Of a stretch of 20,000 nucleotides of DNA, positions 2,286-15,129 are shown piece by piece; positions within the stretch are counted from its first letter, which is position 1, and each line of letters opens with the position of its first letter. Below the pieces are notes generated by a model. It had not been told where the DNA came from, made no database searches, and worked only from the letters and a program-made list of their open reading frames with translations. The stretch is from Craspedostauros australis. Taxonomy: Eukaryota. The position numbers and the translations under genes were made by a program. The DNA lies in contig JALAGF010003801.1 in assembly GCA_030167865.1 (NCBI GenBank), positions 45,652-65,651 on the forward strand. The letters are read 5' to 3'.

Positions 2286-2854
2286 CCATACAAGCAAGCT
2301 TCAAGTCCTCCAACTCTTCGAGGAGTCCGATTGCGGTTCCATTCCACGAGTTACTCCACTGGATCCCGCCCGCCAACATGTCGACATCAAAGTTCGCGCT
2401 GTTCTGCCTCACCAGGTGTTGGCTGGTGCACCAGTGGGACACCTTTGTGTTGTTTCGTCTTGTCCGCGTGCCCAGCGCTTCGTGTCGCATCATCTGAAGC
2501 GCGTTAATTGCGACGCCTCGAATCGCGCGTCAGTGAGATCTTCGAGTCACACAACACATACTTTTTGGGATAAAATTTGTCGTCACACTGCATGGGCGCA
2601 GGCGAAGGTTGGACGTCGCGTTTTGGGGAGGAGAGATGAGTGGAGAATCCCTTCATCCAGCAACCAGTCGCGAGTTACGAGCAAGGAGATGGACAGATCG
2701 CGCTCTTGGCCACGCCATGACACTGCACAGCAGCGAAACGCCTCCATTTGTCGACCAACCAGCACCGTTGGCTCATAATTTCACGAAAGGGATTGGAAGC
2801 AACCATCACCATCACCATCATCATCATCCAAAACGACTGACGGCACAGAGCGAA

Positions 2855-4774
2855 ATGATGGCCTGGAAGCAATGGCACTGTGGAGGAGAGGGGGCGTTCT
2901 TCTGCCACCCGACAAGGTTTCTGCGGACGCTGGTGGCGCTCATGCTGCTAATGCCGACCCTTGCTGCGACAGGAAGTGGTGGCGCCAAGCATCATGGTGA
3001 TGCGGTTCTGCAAGACGGCAATGTTGCCATGGACGGCAACAACTACGATCACCACATCGGCATCAGCGGACCGTTCGACCATCTCCGACCACGCAAACTG
3101 CAACAGGACACGCCCGACGATGTAACGTCGCTCATCCCAGACTTCCCAGCTTGCAACACATTGCTGCACACGCTCAGCAAGGCGCAGGTCGCGACGATGA
3201 TGACAGCACTGATCAACGGTCGGAGCAGGTTTTCGGATTTGGAAAAGTTCATTTTCAGAGCCCAATTTGTTACCAACATCAAGCACGGCGTTGAGATCCG
3301 TCGTGTTTGCGCGTCCTGCGACGACATTCCGCAGTTTGTGAAGTCAGCATCTGCGCAGGTCGCTGAGAGCGTCGAGTCTTTCTGCGGCGCCGATGTGTAC
3401 GGAAGCGACGTCCAGTACTCTGGATTGCTCGTGATCCCAATCGATGAAAACGCAAGCAACGACGCACCATCGCGCATTGTGAAGGGCCCGTTGCGGAGCT
3501 TCGTCTACTTCCACACCACCTCGCATTCGTTCAATGTGCCCAGCATTCGCGAAATCCGCAACACACTGGAGCCGGCCCCGACGTTTGGTTTCGATTTTGA
3601 AACGGGGCTCCAGCTGACCTTGGCTGCGCATGGCGCGGTGATGTTGGCACCAGACTTCATGGGGTACGCCGAGAGTTACGATAAGATCGTCAAGGGCTAC
3701 ATTCTGCGCAAATCTTACGAAACCTCCTCCATCCCGCTTTGGTTTAAGGCCAAGGAGATCGTGCGGGTGGAGACAATGTGCGAGTCCGAGATGGCCAACG
3801 TGGCTGCGGGTGTCGGATTCAGCGAGGGTGGCTACGCAGGCATCGTGGTTATGGAATTGCTTTCGAAGGTATTTGGCGTCGACGTCGTCCAGTACTACGC
3901 CGGCGGGGTCCCTGCCAAGCTCGGTTCTGCCGGCGTCTTGAGCATCATTCAAGCGGTGGTGGATGGCACGCTGGAGGAAGATCGTCGGTACAACTTGGCT
4001 TACCTCGGCGTCGCCTACTCTTCCACTCACACCGGCGCAAAGAACTACAACGTTGGGCAGGATTTCTTGGCAACACATGCCCGCGAAAATGTGACGAGGG
4101 CCGTGAATGAAAGCTACACCCTCGCATGGGTCAATGACGCCGTACCGCTTGGAGATGAGCTGTCGGTCTTCAATGATACCTTCACAAAGTTCGCCTTGGA
4201 CAACCTTGACGACGACAACTTCACACTGTGCCACAGCGACGACGCGGTGCTGCGAGAGGTGGGCGTGGAGTTGCTGTGCGATGCATTGAAAGACAACGAG
4301 CTGTTGGACACGATGGAGAATATCCAATTCCCACTCACGGTCTGCCAATCTCCGGATGACGAGATCGTCAGCATCGACAACTTGCCCGACTTCAGCAAGA
4401 ATGCAAACTTGACCAGGGTCGATGTCACAGGAAGGCACACGTCAGCGGGACTGCAATGCATTCTCAACGGTGCACAGTTCGCCGTGGACGAGGCCTTCCT
4501 CAACTATCCCATTCAGAGCGACATCCATCTGGACAACCTGAACTGCGATTCGCCCGCTCCATCCATGATCCCAAGCATGGCCCCCACTCCGTCGCCCACA
4601 TCAGCGCCGACGAATGCTACAGAAACGGGTGCGCCCACATCGGCGCCAACGAATGCTGCAGAAACGGGTGCGCCCACATCGGGTGGCACCCAGCTAGGCG
4701 CAGGCGCGTGGCTATTGGGTCGAACCGCCATGTTCGCAACTATCGTTGCTGCCCTGTGCTCTTCCTTCGTGTAA
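2855..4774 (+). CDS. Secreted lipase/esterase-like alpha/beta hydrolase (secretory-lipase-like), probably GPI-anchored; start uncertain (in-frame ATGs at 2636, 2717, 2855, 2858)
   Basis: Nucleophile elbow GFSEGG at 3815-3832. YFHTT and APDFMGY resemble the YxHGT and PDYxG motifs of secretory lipases. Candidate catalytic Asp in SPDDEIV and His in GRHTS. Hydrophobic signal-like segment RFLRTLVALMLLMPTLAA shortly after Met 2855. The Cys-containing N-domain is followed after the hydrolase by a P/T/S stalk and a hydrophobic C-terminal tail with no cytosolic extension. The track start at 2609 is TTG, unlikely in a eukaryote. Confidence 0.8.
   Translation: MMAWKQWHCGGEGAFFCHPTRFLRTLVALMLLMPTLAATGSGGAKHHGDAVLQDGNVAMDGNNYDHHIGISGPFDHLRPRKLQQDTPDDVTSLIPDFPACNTLLHTLSKAQVATMMTALINGRSRFSDLEKFIFRAQFVTNIKHGVEIRRVCASCDDIPQFVKSASAQVAESVESFCGADVYGSDVQYSGLLVIPIDENASNDAPSRIVKGPLRSFVYFHTTSHSFNVPSIREIRNTLEPAPTFGFDFETGLQLTLAAHGAVMLAPDFMGYAESYDKIVKGYILRKSYETSSIPLWFKAKEIVRVETMCESEMANVAAGVGFSEGGYAGIVVMELLSKVFGVDVVQYYAGGVPAKLGSAGVLSIIQAVVDGTLEEDRRYNLAYLGVAYSSTHTGAKNYNVGQDFLATHARENVTRAVNESYTLAWVNDAVPLGDELSVFNDTFTKFALDNLDDDNFTLCHSDDAVLREVGVELLCDALKDNELLDTMENIQFPLTVCQSPDDEIVSIDNLPDFSKNANLTRVDVTGRHTSAGLQCILNGAQFAVDEAFLNYPIQSDIHLDNLNCDSPAPSMIPSMAPTPSPTSAPTNATETGAPTSAPTNAAETGAPTSGGTQLGAGAWLLGRTAMFATIVAALCSSFV
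4595..4681 (+). repeat. 39-bp coding tandem repeat, ~2.2 copies (PTSAPTNA[T/A]ETGA)
   Basis: Units at 4595-4633 and 4634-4672 differ at 3 nt; partial third unit at 4673-4681. Confidence 0.9.
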
Positions 4775-5520: not shown

Positions 5521-8157
5521 TCAGTCATCGAGTTCGTAATCCTCCGGTTCCATCGCGGCCTTCGTCTCTTCGTAGTAATTCCACATGACGTCCATGAGCT
5601 CGGTCTTCTTGACTTCACGCCACTGATCCAAACTCTTGCCATCGATCGAGACGAAGTACCGGCGTCCCTTCAGTTGTATCTTGATGCCGCGGTACACCCT
5701 TGGATCATACTCCTGTTCGCCTTGAATTAACAGGACGTTGCGAACTGCCTGAAGGAACGTGATTGTGCCTGGATGGTCTTCATCCTCGAAGCAGACGTCC
5801 GTGGACTTGGGTACTTCGCTGCCGCGCACTCGGATGCTCGAATGTGATCGCGTGCTGTGCTGGGTGTGGTGCAATGAACCATCCATGGCTTCTGTCGTGT
5901 CGGTGGCAGAGGAGTCGAGCGTCTTCCTCTTTGGCTTTTTCTTCGCCTTCTTCTTTGGCTTGTCAATGTTGTGATTGCTGCCGCTGACGTTGCTGCTGCT
6001 GCTCTCCGTGCTTTTGGTGCTCCTGCTGGACTTCGAGGATCGGTTGCCCTCGTGGATGTAGTCATCCAGCTCATCGATTTCGAAGCTCTTACTCGAGGAC
6101 GCGACGGTGGATGCGAAAGAATCGACCGAGTTGAGACCGGACGACCATGACGAGTCGTCATAGTCGACAGCACCATTACCGTGACGCCGCGTCTGGCTGT
6201 GACCTGATTGCTTCTCGGCAACCGCCTTCTTGGATGCCTTCATTGATTTCGCCGACTTCTTGGACGTCTTCTGCGTCCCAACCGAAGAGCTCGCCGTGCT
6301 GAGATTCGATGTCGTGCTGCCGCGCTTTGCTTTCAACTTGGTGGCAGAGGATGATTGCGCCGCGATTGGGTAGTCAAACTCATGATCGCTATCCTCGGCG
6401 AATTCCGCATCTGTACCATCGACGTCGCTGCTCGTATCATAGTCATCGAAATGCGAGGGCGGCGGTGCCAGTGGAATTGTTGTTGCGACGTTTTGTTTTT
6501 TGGTTTTCTTGGACTTTGGTTTCTCCAGCGGAACAGCGCTGTCCTTGCTCTTCTTTGACAACTTTCCCATCTCCGGAGAAGCAGCTGCAGTAACACCCTT
6601 CTTCTTTTTCTTCTTCGATGTCGGGGTACCCTCGGCAACTTCCGTTGCTGCGGCTGCCTTCTTCTTCTTCTTCGCCTTTGGCGTCTTCTGCTTGGCCGTC
6701 GCCGCCGATTTGTCCTTCTTCTTGGACTTCTTGACGCGCGTGAGAACGCCCGCAGCCTCGTTGTGGCGCGTGATGCTGCTGCTATCCGAATGGTGAGATG
6801 ATTCTTCAAGAATGATCTCCTGAGGTGGGATGTGCATGCGTCCCGAAGAACGATCGCTCGTGGTCGTGCTGGAGCCAAAGCTGGCGGAGTGCTGGGGTGG
6901 GTGACGATGCGTCGAAGATGCGTAGGGGTTGCGGTGCATTTCGGGTGGAGCATAGGGTCCATTTGCATGGGAGGAGAGAGACATTTGATGGCGCCGTCCG
7001 GGCGTGGATGGGCCGTGTCTGCTGGTGCTGAGCGAGCTGTGCATGGAAGACGACAAGGATGGTCCACCCATCCTCCTCGTCGAATGCTGTCCGTGTGATG
7101 ACATGGATAGGCCCGCTCGCTTGGCGTGCGGGTTTGGTCGCCGCTGCGGCGGCTGTCGCTGCCAGTGCATGGCCATTTGCTGCGATTGCAAGGAAGAGAG
7201 CGGTTCGTCTAGCCCCTTCGGGTAGACGGCATAACGATTGCTGTCCGGCGGTTGCGGCTGTCTGTTCATGCTCTGGCTGTGCCTGGCGTTGCTGTGCATG
7301 GACTGCGACAGACCCATATCAGGTCCTTTCATGCTCTTGTTGATCGGCTTGGACATCATCGTGGGCGGTTGCTTCGATCCGTGCATGGATGCAGACAGAC
7401 CTCTTCCAGAACCTGCGGCAGGTCTGCTGCTTGGAATTCGCTGAAACCCGTACGTGCCGGCGGTGGAATGTTGCATCGGTGGCTGTTTCGATCCATGCAG
7501 AGATGACGAGAGACCCATCGCTCGCATGGACTTTGGCGCGGCGGATTTGCGTGGACCTGGTGCCTGGTGGAACTCCACACGCCTGGATCCCTGGGCCTGC
7601 ACGTTTCTGCTTGAACGTGCCTTTTGCATCTGCCATTTTCTGCCTGCTGTTGGTGACGCAGACGCATGCCTGCCATGCGAGTCTGGCGCTCCTGTCATGG
7701 GGACGCTGTTGTGGAATCGATTCTGTGGATGCGGATGCTGATATTGTTGCTGATAGTGTTGCTGTTGTTGATGGTATTGCTGATGGTGTTGCTGTTGCTG
7801 ACGGTGTTGCTGACCATGGTACCCAGCGTGCTCACCAACGTCTCCGCCTTCGCCGAAGCTGCCGAAGCTGATGAAGCTGTCGTTGAGCCGGTACTGATCT
7901 TCCATGTCGAACATCACATCGAGAGGGACCGCCATCTGCTGCTGCGTCTGCATCTGCGGCTGAACCTTGCCCTTGTTCTTGTTCTTGTTCTTGCCCTTGC
8001 CCTTGGTCTTCTTCTTGTCTTTGTCATTCTTCTTGGTCTTGGCCTTGACCTTCTTGCCGCTCTTGGAAACGAAGGGGCTCTTGAGGTTGATCGGCAGCGC
8101 CATGCCCTGGCTGGGCCGGTTCACCTTCTTGCCGCTGCCAAAGAGCTTGCTGGGCAT
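5521..8157 (-). CDS. 878-aa largely disordered hypothetical protein (K-rich, Q/H-rich and S-rich tracts) with a C-terminal DUF6824-like domain
   Basis: Uninterrupted 2.6-kb ORF with ATG in good context (cagcaccATG). The body is low complexity. The last ~95 aa look globular: PKSTDVCF..HPGT..F..AV...GRRYF...WREV. Confidence 0.8.
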   Translation of the reverse strand: MPSKLFGSGKKVNRPSQGMALPINLKSPFVSKSGKKVKAKTKKNDKDKKKTKGKGKNKNKNKGKVQPQMQTQQQMAVPLDVMFDMEDQYRLNDSFISFGSFGEGGDVGEHAGYHGQQHRQQQQHHQQYHQQQQHYQQQYQHPHPQNRFHNSVPMTGAPDSHGRHASASPTAGRKWQMQKARSSRNVQAQGSRRVEFHQAPGPRKSAAPKSMRAMGLSSSLHGSKQPPMQHSTAGTYGFQRIPSSRPAAGSGRGLSASMHGSKQPPTMMSKPINKSMKGPDMGLSQSMHSNARHSQSMNRQPQPPDSNRYAVYPKGLDEPLSSLQSQQMAMHWQRQPPQRRPNPHAKRAGLSMSSHGQHSTRRMGGPSLSSSMHSSLSTSRHGPSTPGRRHQMSLSSHANGPYAPPEMHRNPYASSTHRHPPQHSASFGSSTTTSDRSSGRMHIPPQEIILEESSHHSDSSSITRHNEAAGVLTRVKKSKKKDKSAATAKQKTPKAKKKKKAAAATEVAEGTPTSKKKKKKGVTAAASPEMGKLSKKSKDSAVPLEKPKSKKTKKQNVATTIPLAPPPSHFDDYDTSSDVDGTDAEFAEDSDHEFDYPIAAQSSSATKLKAKRGSTTSNLSTASSSVGTQKTSKKSAKSMKASKKAVAEKQSGHSQTRRHGNGAVDYDDSSWSSGLNSVDSFASTVASSSKSFEIDELDDYIHEGNRSSKSSRSTKSTESSSSNVSGSNHNIDKPKKKAKKKPKRKTLDSSATDTTEAMDGSLHHTQHSTRSHSSIRVRGSEVPKSTDVCFEDEDHPGTITFLQAVRNVLLIQGEQEYDPRVYRGIKIQLKGRRYFVSIDGKSLDQWREVKKTELMDVMWNYYEETKAAMEPEDYELDD

Positions 8158-10298: not shown

Positions 10299-11669
10299 AT
10301 GGGAGCCTGTTCATCGTCATGCGGCATCTGCCAAAACAGCGACGCGACGGTCGTGCAACTGCAGGTCATTCCGCCAGAAACGGACCTGCTGGATCTTTGC
10401 AGCTTGGCCACCGACGACACGATCCGCCTCGAAGCATTCGAAATGATCAAGACGCGAGTCGCCAGCCACCCGCGCGAGGCACGCATGTGGAACGAGCAGC
10501 GCCGCTTGCCCATCCACATGATCTGCGCCTTGCCCGATATGTGGGATGAAGCCTCGGCGCGGCACATCATCCGTGTCCTCGTCAACGCGTATCCGAAGGG
10601 CCTCACCATGCCCGATGGATCCAATGATACGCCGTTGCATCTGACATGCGAGACGCAGGGGTACGAAGTGGCAATGACCGTGTTCCAGGCCATGCGCACC
10701 GCTGTTTCCATCAAAGGGAAGGAAGGAAATCTGCCGATCCACATGGTGTGCCGTCGGTACGTTTGTTCAGATGAGAAAAAGTGGCTCGACGTCCTCCTGC
10801 AAATGCTGATGGAATATCCGCAAGGAGTCTTCGAGAAGGACGAAGAAGGGTTGACGCCCATGAAGGCCGCATGGGTTTTCGACGCTGATCTCAGGCCGAT
10901 GATTGACATCAACAAATACATGTGCGACACAACAGAAGCCTCGGGCCGCCAAATGCGCTGCCATGAGGTCGCGCTCATGCTGTTGTTCTTTGCGGAACGG
11001 CACTTGCGAAAAGATGGCAAAGCAGCAAAGATTGTTGAGAAGACCAAGGCAGTAGACGCGTCACAGCCAAATCCTGCTGGCGGCGACAATGGCGAGGATA
11101 CCGACGAACTCGAAGAGACGGATTCTATGGAAGACAGCGAGGAGACGGAGGAAACGGAAGACAGAGAGGATGTGTCGTCGCAGGACGCCCAGTCGGCACA
11201 GGAAATGGACGAGGCGGCGTCCCAGCAGCCGCATGGTGCGCTCCCACCGACTCAATCCACAAGATCCAGTCAGTCTTCGAGCTCCAGTCAGTCTGCAAGT
11301 AGCGACGAAGATTCAGAAATCGAAGAACAACTGAACGACCCAGAAGTGGCTGCTCTGCGAAAGGCCATCATAAAGCGCGATGCGTCTTCCCGCGGTCGCC
11401 CCCCGCTGGCAGCACCAGCGACGTTGTTGTGGCTGGTCAAGTATGGCGACAAATGCAACATCCCGATCGCGCTCTGCAAGGCTATTGTCGCGCATAATCA
11501 AAGCCAGCTGCTGGTGCCGGACGCAGAGACAGGCAAGTTACCGCTACATATATTGCAACAGAGGAAGACTGAGCCGGGCACGGATGAATCGTACCTGACG
11601 AGTTTGACGAACGTGGTCGAGAGCTTTCACAAGCGAGTGTCGGATCCCAAGCGATGCAGATTCCTCTAG
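10299..11669 (+). CDS. Ankyrin-repeat-like protein (456 aa) with acidic/Ser-rich insertion
   Basis: ATG in caccATGg context. Ankyrin-type turns: RLPIHMIC, DGSNDTPLHLTC, KEGNLPIHMVC, KDEEGLTPM, DAETGKLPLHIL, preceded by LVNAYP / LLQMLMEYP helices. An E/D/S-rich linker (~11085-11335) interrupts the repeats. Confidence 0.8.
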   Translation: MGACSSSCGICQNSDATVVQLQVIPPETDLLDLCSLATDDTIRLEAFEMIKTRVASHPREARMWNEQRRLPIHMICALPDMWDEASARHIIRVLVNAYPKGLTMPDGSNDTPLHLTCETQGYEVAMTVFQAMRTAVSIKGKEGNLPIHMVCRRYVCSDEKKWLDVLLQMLMEYPQGVFEKDEEGLTPMKAAWVFDADLRPMIDINKYMCDTTEASGRQMRCHEVALMLLFFAERHLRKDGKAAKIVEKTKAVDASQPNPAGGDNGEDTDELEETDSMEDSEETEETEDREDVSSQDAQSAQEMDEAASQQPHGALPPTQSTRSSQSSSSSQSASSDEDSEIEEQLNDPEVAALRKAIIKRDASSRGRPPLAAPATLLWLVKYGDKCNIPIALCKAIVAHNQSQLLVPDAETGKLPLHILQQRKTEPGTDESYLTSLTNVVESFHKRVSDPKRCRFL

Positions 11670-12567: not shown

Positions 12568-15129
12568 ATGGATGGCGGAATGAGCATCAAGGACCGCCTG
12601 GCGGCATGGGGCAAGGCGACCGAACCTCAGAGCTGCCAATCTTCGATGCCGTCTCTCCTGGGCATCACGTCCCATGATAGCAGCGACTGCCGCGAAGACA
12701 TGAAGTCCATATCCACGAGCAAAGGAGACTACAGCACGGACGATGCCTCCCTCGCGACGGCTGAAGTGCGCGAGGAACCACAGGAAACCGTCGAACGAAC
12801 CTACGCAGGCAGTACGAGAGTGAAGCTGAAGAAAGTCGACATCGTGTCGGTGGAGCGACGATCCTACTGCCCTCCCCCAGAAGAGGAGCCGACATACTCG
12901 AGGGAGGCGAAGCTGTTGCGACCTGTGGACATCGATCAGGTTGAGCGCACCAAGACGATCGTGCCCATGGCAGAGCCAGCGTACCGTCAGATCAGTCTGA
13001 GGAAGGCGGGGTCACGCAGCTTGGGCAACGCGATCACCACCGCGTCGAAGAGCTTCGATGACAGGTCTGCAAAAGATATGCGAGATGATGCCATCGTCTC
13101 GCCACCCGACGCTCGCAACCACAGGCGGAGCTTTGGCCACAGGAATCATCGAAGGAGCCGCAGCAGCGTGGATTCATACGTATCCAATCTCAATATCCCG
13201 ATCATGAACATGAATATGAACATGAGTATCAGTACGAGTAGATCGGCTGAGGGCGAAAGGACGCCCATAAAAGCGCAAGTCAAGGATCGCGAAGGTGCAA
13301 GGGATCCCCAAGATGCCGAAAGTCATGCGAAAGCTGACGGTCTCCCCAGCAACACAAGCAGTCGCCTTCCAGTCAAACTCAACAAGGTTGACATTGCCGC
13401 AGTCGAACAACAGCAGAATATCCCGCAGCCCAAGGCTCCACTTTACAAGAATATAAACCTTCGCAAGGTACACCGTCCTGATCGATGTGCCGAGAGCGCC
13501 TCGATGACACCAACGGACGCCAGCTTCACCAGCTGCGAAGCCACGAGCGAACGGAGCAGACCGGTGATCCGTACACCATGCAAGTCATCCAGGACTTCGA
13601 AGCCCTCGTCCATCCAATCTTCATCACTTCCACCACCATCACTGTCGACGGCATTGCCAAATGCTTCTTCTCCCGCAATCACCAGAACACAGACTCCAGG
13701 AACCTCCTCGGGGTCAGCTGGGCAGCGGGATGGTCGACAGCCCCGTGTTGTGCGACGAGTCCAAAGTCCTCCCGTCCATCCACGAGATCCGGTGAAGAGC
13801 AAGGTCGTCATCACGCCAATCCATTCCTCAAGGATGGCAAGACAAGGTAATACGGGCACGGGTGTGAAGCCCGATACCGCGGACATCCCATCGGTCGTCG
13901 AGGTATCCGAACCGGGAAGGCGATCCCCGTACCAGGTTGTCAGCACAAGCACCAGGCCTGCATCGCAGCGATCCGCTTCCCCTGTTGCGTATGAAGGTGC
14001 AACAGCAACAGCAACAGCAGTCCCTCGCACCCCACCGGTCACATGGCGGCCCAAGTTCAAGCACAACAGGTCCAAATCATTGTCGATGCCGCCCAAAGTA
14101 CTCGATACTGCCGCTGGTGACGACCAATCGGCCAAACAGGCTGCCGCCGATGGCCATGGTGCTGGTAGTCCAGCGCCATTGAATGCCCGAAAAGCTCAGG
14201 GCAGCTCTGCATCACTCACGCCGGTGCGAATGCATGCACTTGGGTATTCCCGATCTCGCCTGCGCAGGACGGACAGGACCCCAACGAAGATCCTGGAGAG
14301 CACGACTTCAGAGGGGGCACAGAGCATGGCCACGTCGACAGTGCCATCCTCTTCCTCCTTCTGTTCTTCGTCGTCGTCATCATCGTCATATGTTGCCGAC
14401 TCATCCTCCTCCGTCGTTTCATCATCCACCGAAGCCCCGCCCGCATCAACCGCAGCCACGGCCACTGCCACATCCATTGCCAAATGCATGGTCACTCCAA
14501 CCAAGAAAACGGGCGTTCCTACTTATGCGAAAGTCCACTTGCGACGTACCGACGTCCCGATGACACCACCCCTCGCCAAGCCCCCATTCAAGCAACGACC
14601 GCACACCGCTAGGACAGATATGCAACCGCCGCATTCGAGGTTCGGAGAGGCTTCGGTGATCGAGTTATCGTCTGAAGACAAGCAGATGAGCGCACATGCC
14701 GACGATGGTCCCAAGAAGGTCAAGTGCAGCGCCGCGCCTGCGATCGAGTCACCGGTCCCATCATACGCGAAGGTCAGCCTTCGTCGTGTCGATATGTTAC
14801 AAGAAGAGGGAGAACAACACCCAGCCCAAGTTGAAACGGTCGCATCGCCTCAGTGCACGCCAATCAAGGAGATGGTCCGTCTCAAGAAGGTCGACATTGA
14901 GGAGGTCGAAGCCAAACTGAGGACAGCGCATCTTCAGAATGTGCCACCAGAGCCTGACACATTCCTGCCGCTGGCTGCGGTGAAACTGAAGAGCACCGAG
15001 GAGCGAGAGGCGGAGGCACGGCAGGCAGAAGAAGAGGCGCAGCACAAGCAGGCGGATGCAAGCAGACTTGCTTCCGAGGCGCCGCTGTACAGCCGCAACA
15101 GCTTACGCAAGGTCGCCGATCGGGAATGA
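12568..15129 (+). CDS. 853-aa disordered S/T/P-rich protein with ~11 dispersed L-[KRN]-[KRPS]-[VTA] (LKKV-like) motifs
   Basis: Long ORF with a canonical Kozak context (gccaccATGg) at 12568. A repeated Y-x(4-7)-L-basic-basic-V/T-D motif recurs through it. No globular domain is recognisable. Confidence 0.8.
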   Translation: MDGGMSIKDRLAAWGKATEPQSCQSSMPSLLGITSHDSSDCREDMKSISTSKGDYSTDDASLATAEVREEPQETVERTYAGSTRVKLKKVDIVSVERRSYCPPPEEEPTYSREAKLLRPVDIDQVERTKTIVPMAEPAYRQISLRKAGSRSLGNAITTASKSFDDRSAKDMRDDAIVSPPDARNHRRSFGHRNHRRSRSSVDSYVSNLNIPIMNMNMNMSISTSRSAEGERTPIKAQVKDREGARDPQDAESHAKADGLPSNTSSRLPVKLNKVDIAAVEQQQNIPQPKAPLYKNINLRKVHRPDRCAESASMTPTDASFTSCEATSERSRPVIRTPCKSSRTSKPSSIQSSSLPPPSLSTALPNASSPAITRTQTPGTSSGSAGQRDGRQPRVVRRVQSPPVHPRDPVKSKVVITPIHSSRMARQGNTGTGVKPDTADIPSVVEVSEPGRRSPYQVVSTSTRPASQRSASPVAYEGATATATAVPRTPPVTWRPKFKHNRSKSLSMPPKVLDTAAGDDQSAKQAAADGHGAGSPAPLNARKAQGSSASLTPVRMHALGYSRSRLRRTDRTPTKILESTTSEGAQSMATSTVPSSSSFCSSSSSSSSYVADSSSSVVSSSTEAPPASTAATATATSIAKCMVTPTKKTGVPTYAKVHLRRTDVPMTPPLAKPPFKQRPHTARTDMQPPHSRFGEASVIELSSEDKQMSAHADDGPKKVKCSAAPAIESPVPSYAKVSLRRVDMLQEEGEQHPAQVETVASPQCTPIKEMVRLKKVDIEEVEAKLRTAHLQNVPPEPDTFLPLAAVKLKSTEEREAEARQAEEEAQHKQADASRLASEAPLYSRNSLRKVADRE

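Follow-up and report, generated by a model that had tools for sequence, protein, structure and literature searches.

An undescribed tandem LKKV-type repeat protein of Craspedostauros australis, a degenerate member of a small diatom family and a candidate multivalent cytoskeletal binder

A stretch of 20,000 nucleotides from Craspedostauros australis (contig JALAGF010003801.1 of assembly GCA_030167865.1, positions 45,652 to 65,651 of the forward strand), referred to here as the window, contains a single-exon open reading frame (ORF) encoding a protein of 853 amino acids, P0001. This ORF is very probably a real gene and a member of a small diatom repeat family. The motif of the family is (P-x-Y-x4)-L-[KR]-K-V-D-[IL]-x-x-V-E-x-x-K, with about 29 amino acids per tandem copy. 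The best overall explanation of the sequence is a multivalent linear-motif protein that would bind a repeating cytoskeletal partner, a reading that is put forward tentatively. An earlier note, made from the letters of the window, had described eleven motif copies and had proposed an undescribed tandem-repeat protein with a WH2-like, LKKV-type core that might bind actin.

The whole of the LKKV-type finding is contained within the one ORF. Its frame 0 contains 11/11 of the Leu codons listed in the earlier note, with the flanking residues exactly as quoted there, and the spacings reported within the clusters (30, 27, 27, 34, 35 and 39 amino acids) are correct. A six-frame scan of the window finds the motif patterns confined to the P0001 ORF. 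When compared with 20000 residue shuffles of P0001, the pattern L[KRN][KRPS][VTA] occurs 11 times against a shuffle mean of 0.61, Y-x4-L[RK][KR][VTA] occurs six times against 0.004 and VDI..VE occurs four times against 0.0003. None of these counts is reached by any of the 20000 shuffles, although the resulting significances are upper estimates because the patterns were composed after the copies had been seen. The strict form L[KR][KR][VT] is found in seven of the eleven copies, where 0.12 would be expected. The Pro-x-Tyr element that had been described as standing in place of the WH2 helix is also present, with a proline at position -7 and a tyrosine at -5 relative to the motif Leu, each in 6/11 copies, and six of the 14 tyrosines of P0001 have a motif Leu exactly five residues downstream.

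DNA-level repeats underlying the P0001 copies were looked for and none was found, and the Leu, Lys and Arg codons vary from copy to copy. The motif is therefore maintained at the protein level. Recent duplication of DNA was considered as the source of the motif and is ruled out by the same two observations.

Relatives of P0001 were sought with an exhaustive phmmer search of 1.84 billion representative proteins at E<=0.001. The sole match is P0002 (E 1.4e-16, ten matched stretches), a protein of 900 amino acids from a Bacillariaceae metagenome-assembled genome (MAG) that is named 'hypothetical protein' by NCBI. A search with P0002 adds P0003, a protein of 741 amino acids from Cylindrotheca closterium (E 1e-194), and P0004, a JGI protein of 498 amino acids (E 3.4e-23). 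None of these three relatives has a precomputed Pfam domain, and the named ones come solely from raphid diatoms (the Bacillariaceae MAG and C. closterium), which agrees with the context suggested beforehand. P0002 repeats L-[KR]-K-V-D-[IL]-x-x-V-E 26 times in a very regular array, at a spacing of 23–33 amino acids, whilst P0003 contains 19 tandem copies and P0004 about 10. Across the relatives the copies are spaced 23–37 amino acids apart, mostly 28–31, and in P0002 and P0003 two repeat flavours strictly alternate to give a super-period of about 59 amino acids.

The relatives change how the copies in P0001 are to be read. Two separate sub-types, PxYxxxxLRK and VxLxKVDIxxVE, had been distinguished in P0001, but the form Y-x4-LKK[VI]D[IL]xxVE is found unbroken in P0004 and in those copies of P0002 and P0003 that are N-terminal. 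Because the relatives carry this fused form, the supposed sub-types are the upstream and downstream halves of one repeat, and in P0001 the two halves are variously eroded. Among 56 repeats of the relatives, the core consists of an invariant Leu (56/56), [KR] at +1, Lys at +2 (52/56), Val at +3 (50/56), Asp at +4 (43/56), [IL] at +5, Val at +8 (37/56) and Glu at +9 (42/56). Beyond the core come a stretch rich in Lys and a Pro at +16, and the positions upstream of the Leu are weakly conserved. A comparison of repeats with linkers had been set beforehand as a test of the proposal, and the repeats prove the better conserved: between P0002 and P0003 the identity is 65–77% at positions 0 to +4 and 46% (215/469) in the linkers, with a modest margin over the linkers when the whole 10-residue core is counted (147/260, or 57%).

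An independent family profile of 32 columns was built from 55 repeats of P0002–P0004 only, with P0001 excluded. It scores 39.8 bits on P0001 against no more than 4.6 bits in 200 shuffles. Five of the eleven copies are clearly recognised, at 7.2–14.7 bits where the best shuffled domain reaches 4.0; two are weakly recognised, at 1.9 and -0.8 bits, and four, with Leu residues 298, 565, 658 and 807, are missed. The terminal repeat at the C-terminus aligns among P0001, P0002 and P0003. Together with the phmmer match and the predicted disorder described below, the profile score and the aligned C-terminal copy fit membership of P0001 in the LKKVDIxxVE family.

Both P0001 and P0002 are predicted to be almost wholly disordered. 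An AlphaFold2 model of P0001, run on a four-sequence alignment, has a mean predicted local distance difference test score (pLDDT) of 41.1 and a predicted template modelling score (pTM) of 0.29, with 784/853 residues below a pLDDT of 50 and two helices only, at residues 777–787 and 810–836 near the C-terminus. The corresponding pLDDT for P0002 is 35.9, with 870/900 residues below 50, and the ESM Atlas model of this protein has a pLDDT of 0.34. A solenoid fold was considered for the regular array and rejected because of the AlphaFold2 pLDDT of P0002. The family is basic, with a pI of 8.7–9.6, and the repeat region of P0002 carries a net charge of +34 over 740 amino acids. P0001 lies at the upper end of this range (pI 9.6), and Ser, Thr, Pro and Ala make up 41% of its residues. 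No N-terminal hydrophobic signal-like segment was seen in P0001 or P0002 by eye, no predictor having been used.

The repeat family appears to be small and unannotated, and is so far detectable in diatoms only. The exact P0001 sequence was not found in a collection of 15 billion proteins, and a search of sequencing runs with the P0001 ORF listed 0 runs, none of RNA. A word-indexed search with P0001 among the near-length proteins of a 5.8-billion set passed 0/7999 scored candidates, the list probably having been filled by low-complexity words. With alignment A1, a word-indexed search over lengths of 30–272 amino acids passed 0/8000; lengths of 273–494 and of more than 1575 amino acids were outside the search, and fused or fragmentary family members of those sizes could exist. 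Scans of metagenome contigs gave 188 pattern matches with A1 and 502 with P0001, of which 0 were confirmed in either case, and residues 560–740 of P0002 gave no usable match in the ESM Atlas. A Pfam ING N-terminal domain is reported at residues 626–656 of P0003, inside the repeat array, at 25.1 bits (cut-off 23.9). It covers only 31/102 profile positions and is probably a compositional partial match. No description of the LKKVD repeat was found in the literature searched, including work on actin-binding proteins in diatoms, and among the titles and abstract openings listed for WH2 and actin in diatoms none describes a diatom WH2 protein, with supplements outside the scope of the search. The first suggestion, of a tandem-repeat protein not described before and with a core of the LKKV type, is supported.

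The regular array suggests how such a protein could work. Each copy of the motif would provide one small site for docking, and several subunits of a repeating partner would be engaged by the array simultaneously. This partner would most likely be a cytoskeletal polymer or its subunits. Actin heads the list of candidates, since the L-K-K-V actin contact falls on the invariant residues of the repeat and a period of about 29 amino acids seems compatible with tandem WH2 arrays. Contact would have to rest on the extended LKKV stretch and on the conserved downstream D-I-x-x-V-E, and the binding mode would have to differ from that of canonical WH2, in which a helix sits in the hydrophobic cleft. Nebulin-type arrays that bind the side of F-actin would offer one parallel, in that they have tens of short tandem modules, potentially one for each filament subunit, and super-repeats. 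Unlike the helical nebulin modules, the diatom repeats are predicted to be disordered, and their sequences do not resemble the nebulin motif. Judged from the sequences, the chance that P0001 is a multivalent cytoskeletal binder is a little short of even, and actin specifically, bound in a non-WH2 mode, would be a possible but rather doubtful partner.

A number of observations weigh against the reading of P0001 as such a binder. The LKKV likeness is partly a selection effect, because it involves four residues only and the protein was picked for it, and in none of the relatives found is the repeat seen fused to a known cytoskeletal domain. A Pfam hmmscan at E<=10 finds no WH2 (PF02205), Thymosin (PF01290) or other actin-binding family in P0001–P0004, with the proviso that HMMER filters can lose very weak matches; in P0001 no family whatever is found, and in the relatives none above its cut-off for the repeat. 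In searches of the PDB at E<=10, phmmer with P0001 gives 0 matches, a profile of the whole protein gives one chance match and a profile of the eleven P0001 copies gives two, and neither profile finds a WH2, thymosin or other cytoskeletal chain. A proline is present between -13 and -5, the position of the WH2 helix, in 57/67 motif copies, and 0/67 combine WH2-like hydrophobic residues at -10/-9 and -6 with the absence of a proline. A warning is also provided by Sca2 of Rickettsia, for which the available text of 10.1101/467431 describes WH2 repeats that were predicted from sequence and then disproved. P0001 is itself a divergent and degenerate member of the family, with only the five copies noted above clearly family-like. 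Its between-cluster linkers are long (80–206 amino acids) and rich in Ser, Thr, Ala and Pro, and the GC content at third codon positions (GC3) of its ORF is 0.62, lower than the 0.68–0.78 of the adjoining genes. A prediction of the complex between residues 726–795 of P0001 and P0005, an actin of conventional protist type that was taken from a public contig and matches solved actins over its full length (E ~1e-234), counts neither for nor against actin binding: it scored 0.09 against a mark of 0.34, in a run with no controls in which the actin alignment was not used and the partner was folded without one.

A lineage-specific disordered scaffold is an alternative of clearly less than even probability. 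Here the motif would dock a non-cytoskeletal partner (a nuclear or membrane-associated factor, for instance, or else a kinase or phosphatase) or would make weak multivalent contacts, and the likeness to LKKV would be coincidental. An unrelated known repeat family, which had been named beforehand as an outcome that would undo the proposal, was not found by the Pfam, PDB or protein searches, and this lack of any known-family match speaks for the scaffold reading. In addition, [RK][RK]x[ST] sites lie directly before the repeat Leu in P0002 (10/12 such sites) and P0003 (8/15 such sites), in every second repeat, which suggests regulated docking; none precedes a repeat Leu in P0001 or P0004. These basic-basic-x-Ser/Thr sites of P0002 and P0003 may represent a phospho-switch on the motif. 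The only language-model neighbour, obtained from the ESM Atlas with residues 60–310 of P0001, is a 'Treacle' cluster, a low-complexity nucleolar-type protein, at 0.77, which is below the reporting threshold. Against a scaffold of this kind, a near-regular tandem array of as many as 26 copies points to a partner that is itself periodic, and a well-known motif of actin contact falls on the invariant residues.

It is unlikely, but a serious rival reading, that the family binds the tubulin lattice in the manner of tau, MAP2 and MAP4, with an extended basic repeat lying along the protofilaments and the two flavours matching alternating alpha- and beta-tubulin. The repeats of tau, MAP2 and MAP4 are likewise disordered, basic, tandem and about 30 amino acids long, and they include a Lys-Lys-hydrophobic-Asp-Leu ... 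Val ... Lys stretch that is partly similar to K-K-V-D-[IL]-x-x-V-E-x-x-K of the diatom repeat. The period of about 28–31 amino acids, the strict alternation of flavours in P0002 and P0003, the positive charge of the P0002 repeat region and the predicted disorder would all suit this mode of binding. However, the Pfam tubulin-binding family (PF00418) is unmatched at E<=10 in P0001–P0004 and the PDB profile searches contain no tau chain. The Gly-rich end of tau-type repeats was not seen when the sequences were read by eye, each repeat carries a net charge of only about +1, much lower than in tau-type repeats, and the family is so far known from diatoms only.

A true WH2/beta-thymosin tandem array is very unlikely. 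In such an array each copy would bind one G-actin through the barbed-end cleft, and the protein would nucleate, sequester or bundle actin in the manner of Spire, Cobl and ciboulot. The resemblance is readily set out: both are short disordered modules built around L-[KR]-K-[VT], frequently with an acidic residue next, and both are arranged in tandem with flexible linkers and a similar period (27–39 amino acids within the clusters of P0001), in proteins that are apparently cytosolic. Beta-thymosins have an aromatic residue before LKKT, which the Tyr at -5 of P0001 resembles. This Tyr is present in 6/11 copies of P0001 and in 7/56 of the relatives, and of the beta-thymosin features a helix follows copy 9 only. 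WH2 motifs are described in the available texts of 10.1101/467431, PMC6770570 and PMC9569871 as about 17–20 amino acids long, with tandem copies joined by flexible linkers in Spire, Cobl and VopL, and with an N-terminal amphipathic alpha-helix of two to three turns that binds the hydrophobic cleft of actin. The C-terminal LKKV-type motif of PF02205 is the one part that is present, in the seven strict copies. Unlike WH2 modules, the diatom repeats lack the upstream amphipathic helix and have prolines in its place. The Pro/Gly-free run before the Leu is about six residues in P0001 and alternates between nine and three in P0002 and P0003, and AlphaFold2 places a helix upstream of 0 P0001 copies. 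In the relatives' 56 repeats the conserved element, D-I-x-x-V-E-x-x-K, lies on the downstream side of LKKV, which is again unlike WH2, and the family reaches 26 copies as compared with the one to four WH2 motifs per protein given in the available text of PMC6770570. Because of the missing Pfam and PDB matches in all four family members, the prolines at the helix position, the downstream conservation and the example of Sca2, P0001 is not assigned to WH2, and membership in the WH2/beta-thymosin type is not supported by the sequence tests, with the LKKV core alone fitting.

The last alternative, a chance or decaying ORF in which the motifs are non-functional relics, might draw on the low GC3, the six degenerate copies out of eleven and the absence of the exact protein from the 15-billion-protein collection, but it is most improbable given an open frame of 2.5 kb in DNA of 56% GC, the protein homology to P0002, the synonymous codon differences between copies and the C-terminal architecture shared with the relatives.

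Coordinates of the P0001 ORF, its motif copies and a predicted helix, as positions in the window
Feature	Residues	Position	Strand	Form	Evidence
P0001 ORF, single exon	853 aa	12568..15129	+		AlphaFold2 disorder; homology to diatom protein P0002, E 1.4e-16
Copy 1	83-100	12814..12867	+	Full form, VK-LKKVDIVSVE	Family profile 11.6 bits
Copy 2	105-130	12880..12957	+	Y...LRPVDIDQVERTK; stretch with best match to P0002	Family profile 7.2 bits
Copy 3	136-146	12973..13005	+	P-x-Y-x4-LRKA, downstream half lost	Family profile 1.9 bits, weak
Copy 4	269-283	13372..13416	+	VK-LNKVDIAAVE (profile match residues 273-283)	Family profile 7.2 bits
Copy 5	293-301	13444..13470	+	Y-x4-LRKV, downstream half lost	Missed by family profile
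Copy 6	560-569	14245..14274	+	Y-x4-LRRTD	Missed by family profile
Copy 7	653-662	14524..14553	+	P-x-Y-x4-LRRTD	Missed by family profile
Copy 8	728-753	14749..14826	+	P-x-Y-x4-LRRVD	Family profile 8.1 bits
Copy 9 (best)	769-783	14872..14916	+	VR-LKKVDIEEVE	Family profile 14.7 bits; enters predicted short helix 777-787 (AlphaFold2)
Copy 10, doubtful repeat	805-810	14980..14997	+	VK-LKST	Missed by family profile; at start of predicted helix
Predicted helix	810-836	14995-15075	+	Glu/Ala-rich	AlphaFold2 model
Copy 11, extreme C-terminus	840-849	15085..15114	+	Y-x4-LRKVADR	Family profile -0.8 bits; aligned to the L[KD]KV copy at the C-terminus of P0002 and of P0003

A few further features were observed in and around P0001. 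Within one of its long linkers the protein has a Met-Asn alternation, MNMNMNM, at residues 213–219 (13204-13224, +). The neighbouring gene at 10299-11669 (+) encodes an ankyrin-repeat protein (its Ank_5 match is below the cut-off) that carries a long insert, acidic and rich in Ser. An ORF of 878 amino acids at 5521-8157 (-) matches no Pfam family; it is rich in Lys, Gln, His and Ser, has poly-Lys tracts and looks more ordinary towards its C-terminus, and it contains a G-L-S-x-S-M-H-G-S-K-Q-P-P-type motif about five times, as another lineage-specific disordered repeat protein. A further ORF without a Pfam family, of 721 amino acids at 2609-4774 (+), has a run of nine His near its N-terminus, a Pro/Thr/Ala-rich element, GAPTSAPTNAxET, in two tandem copies near its C-terminus, and a hydrophobic C-terminal tail; its product may be secreted or membrane-anchored.

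Amongst public contigs, full-length actin genes with 82–87% identity to conventional eukaryotic actin are present at three loci, L013, L026 and L032, on contigs of 121, 34.5 and 243 kb whose labels read, respectively, cyanobacterial MAG, Microcoleus and Polyangiaceae MAG. These could be real transfers into bacteria rather than contamination. Many other actin matches, found on short contigs of low coverage, look like contamination.

The interest of the family lies in the gliding of raphid diatoms, which move on two stable actin bundles beneath the raphe. In these bundles, actin showed no directional turnover in a study of 2024 (PMC11420354). The available text of that study names no protein that holds the raphe-associated bundles together. 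A family with 10–26 tandem LKKV-containing motifs, whose named members come from raphid diatoms, is a concrete and testable candidate for such a role, and P0002 and P0003 are better experimental entry points than the degenerate P0001. At its most ambitious, the suggestion from these sequences is that LKKVDIxxVE would be a new helix-less actin-binding module, up to 26 copies of which would decorate filaments subunit by subunit as a ruler or stabiliser and so hold the static bundles together under the gliding myosins, although this is a long shot. If actin is indeed bound without the WH2 helix, the definition of LKKV-type actin modules would be widened; if the partner is not actin, the family would still provide a clean new case of a highly multivalent linear-motif array.

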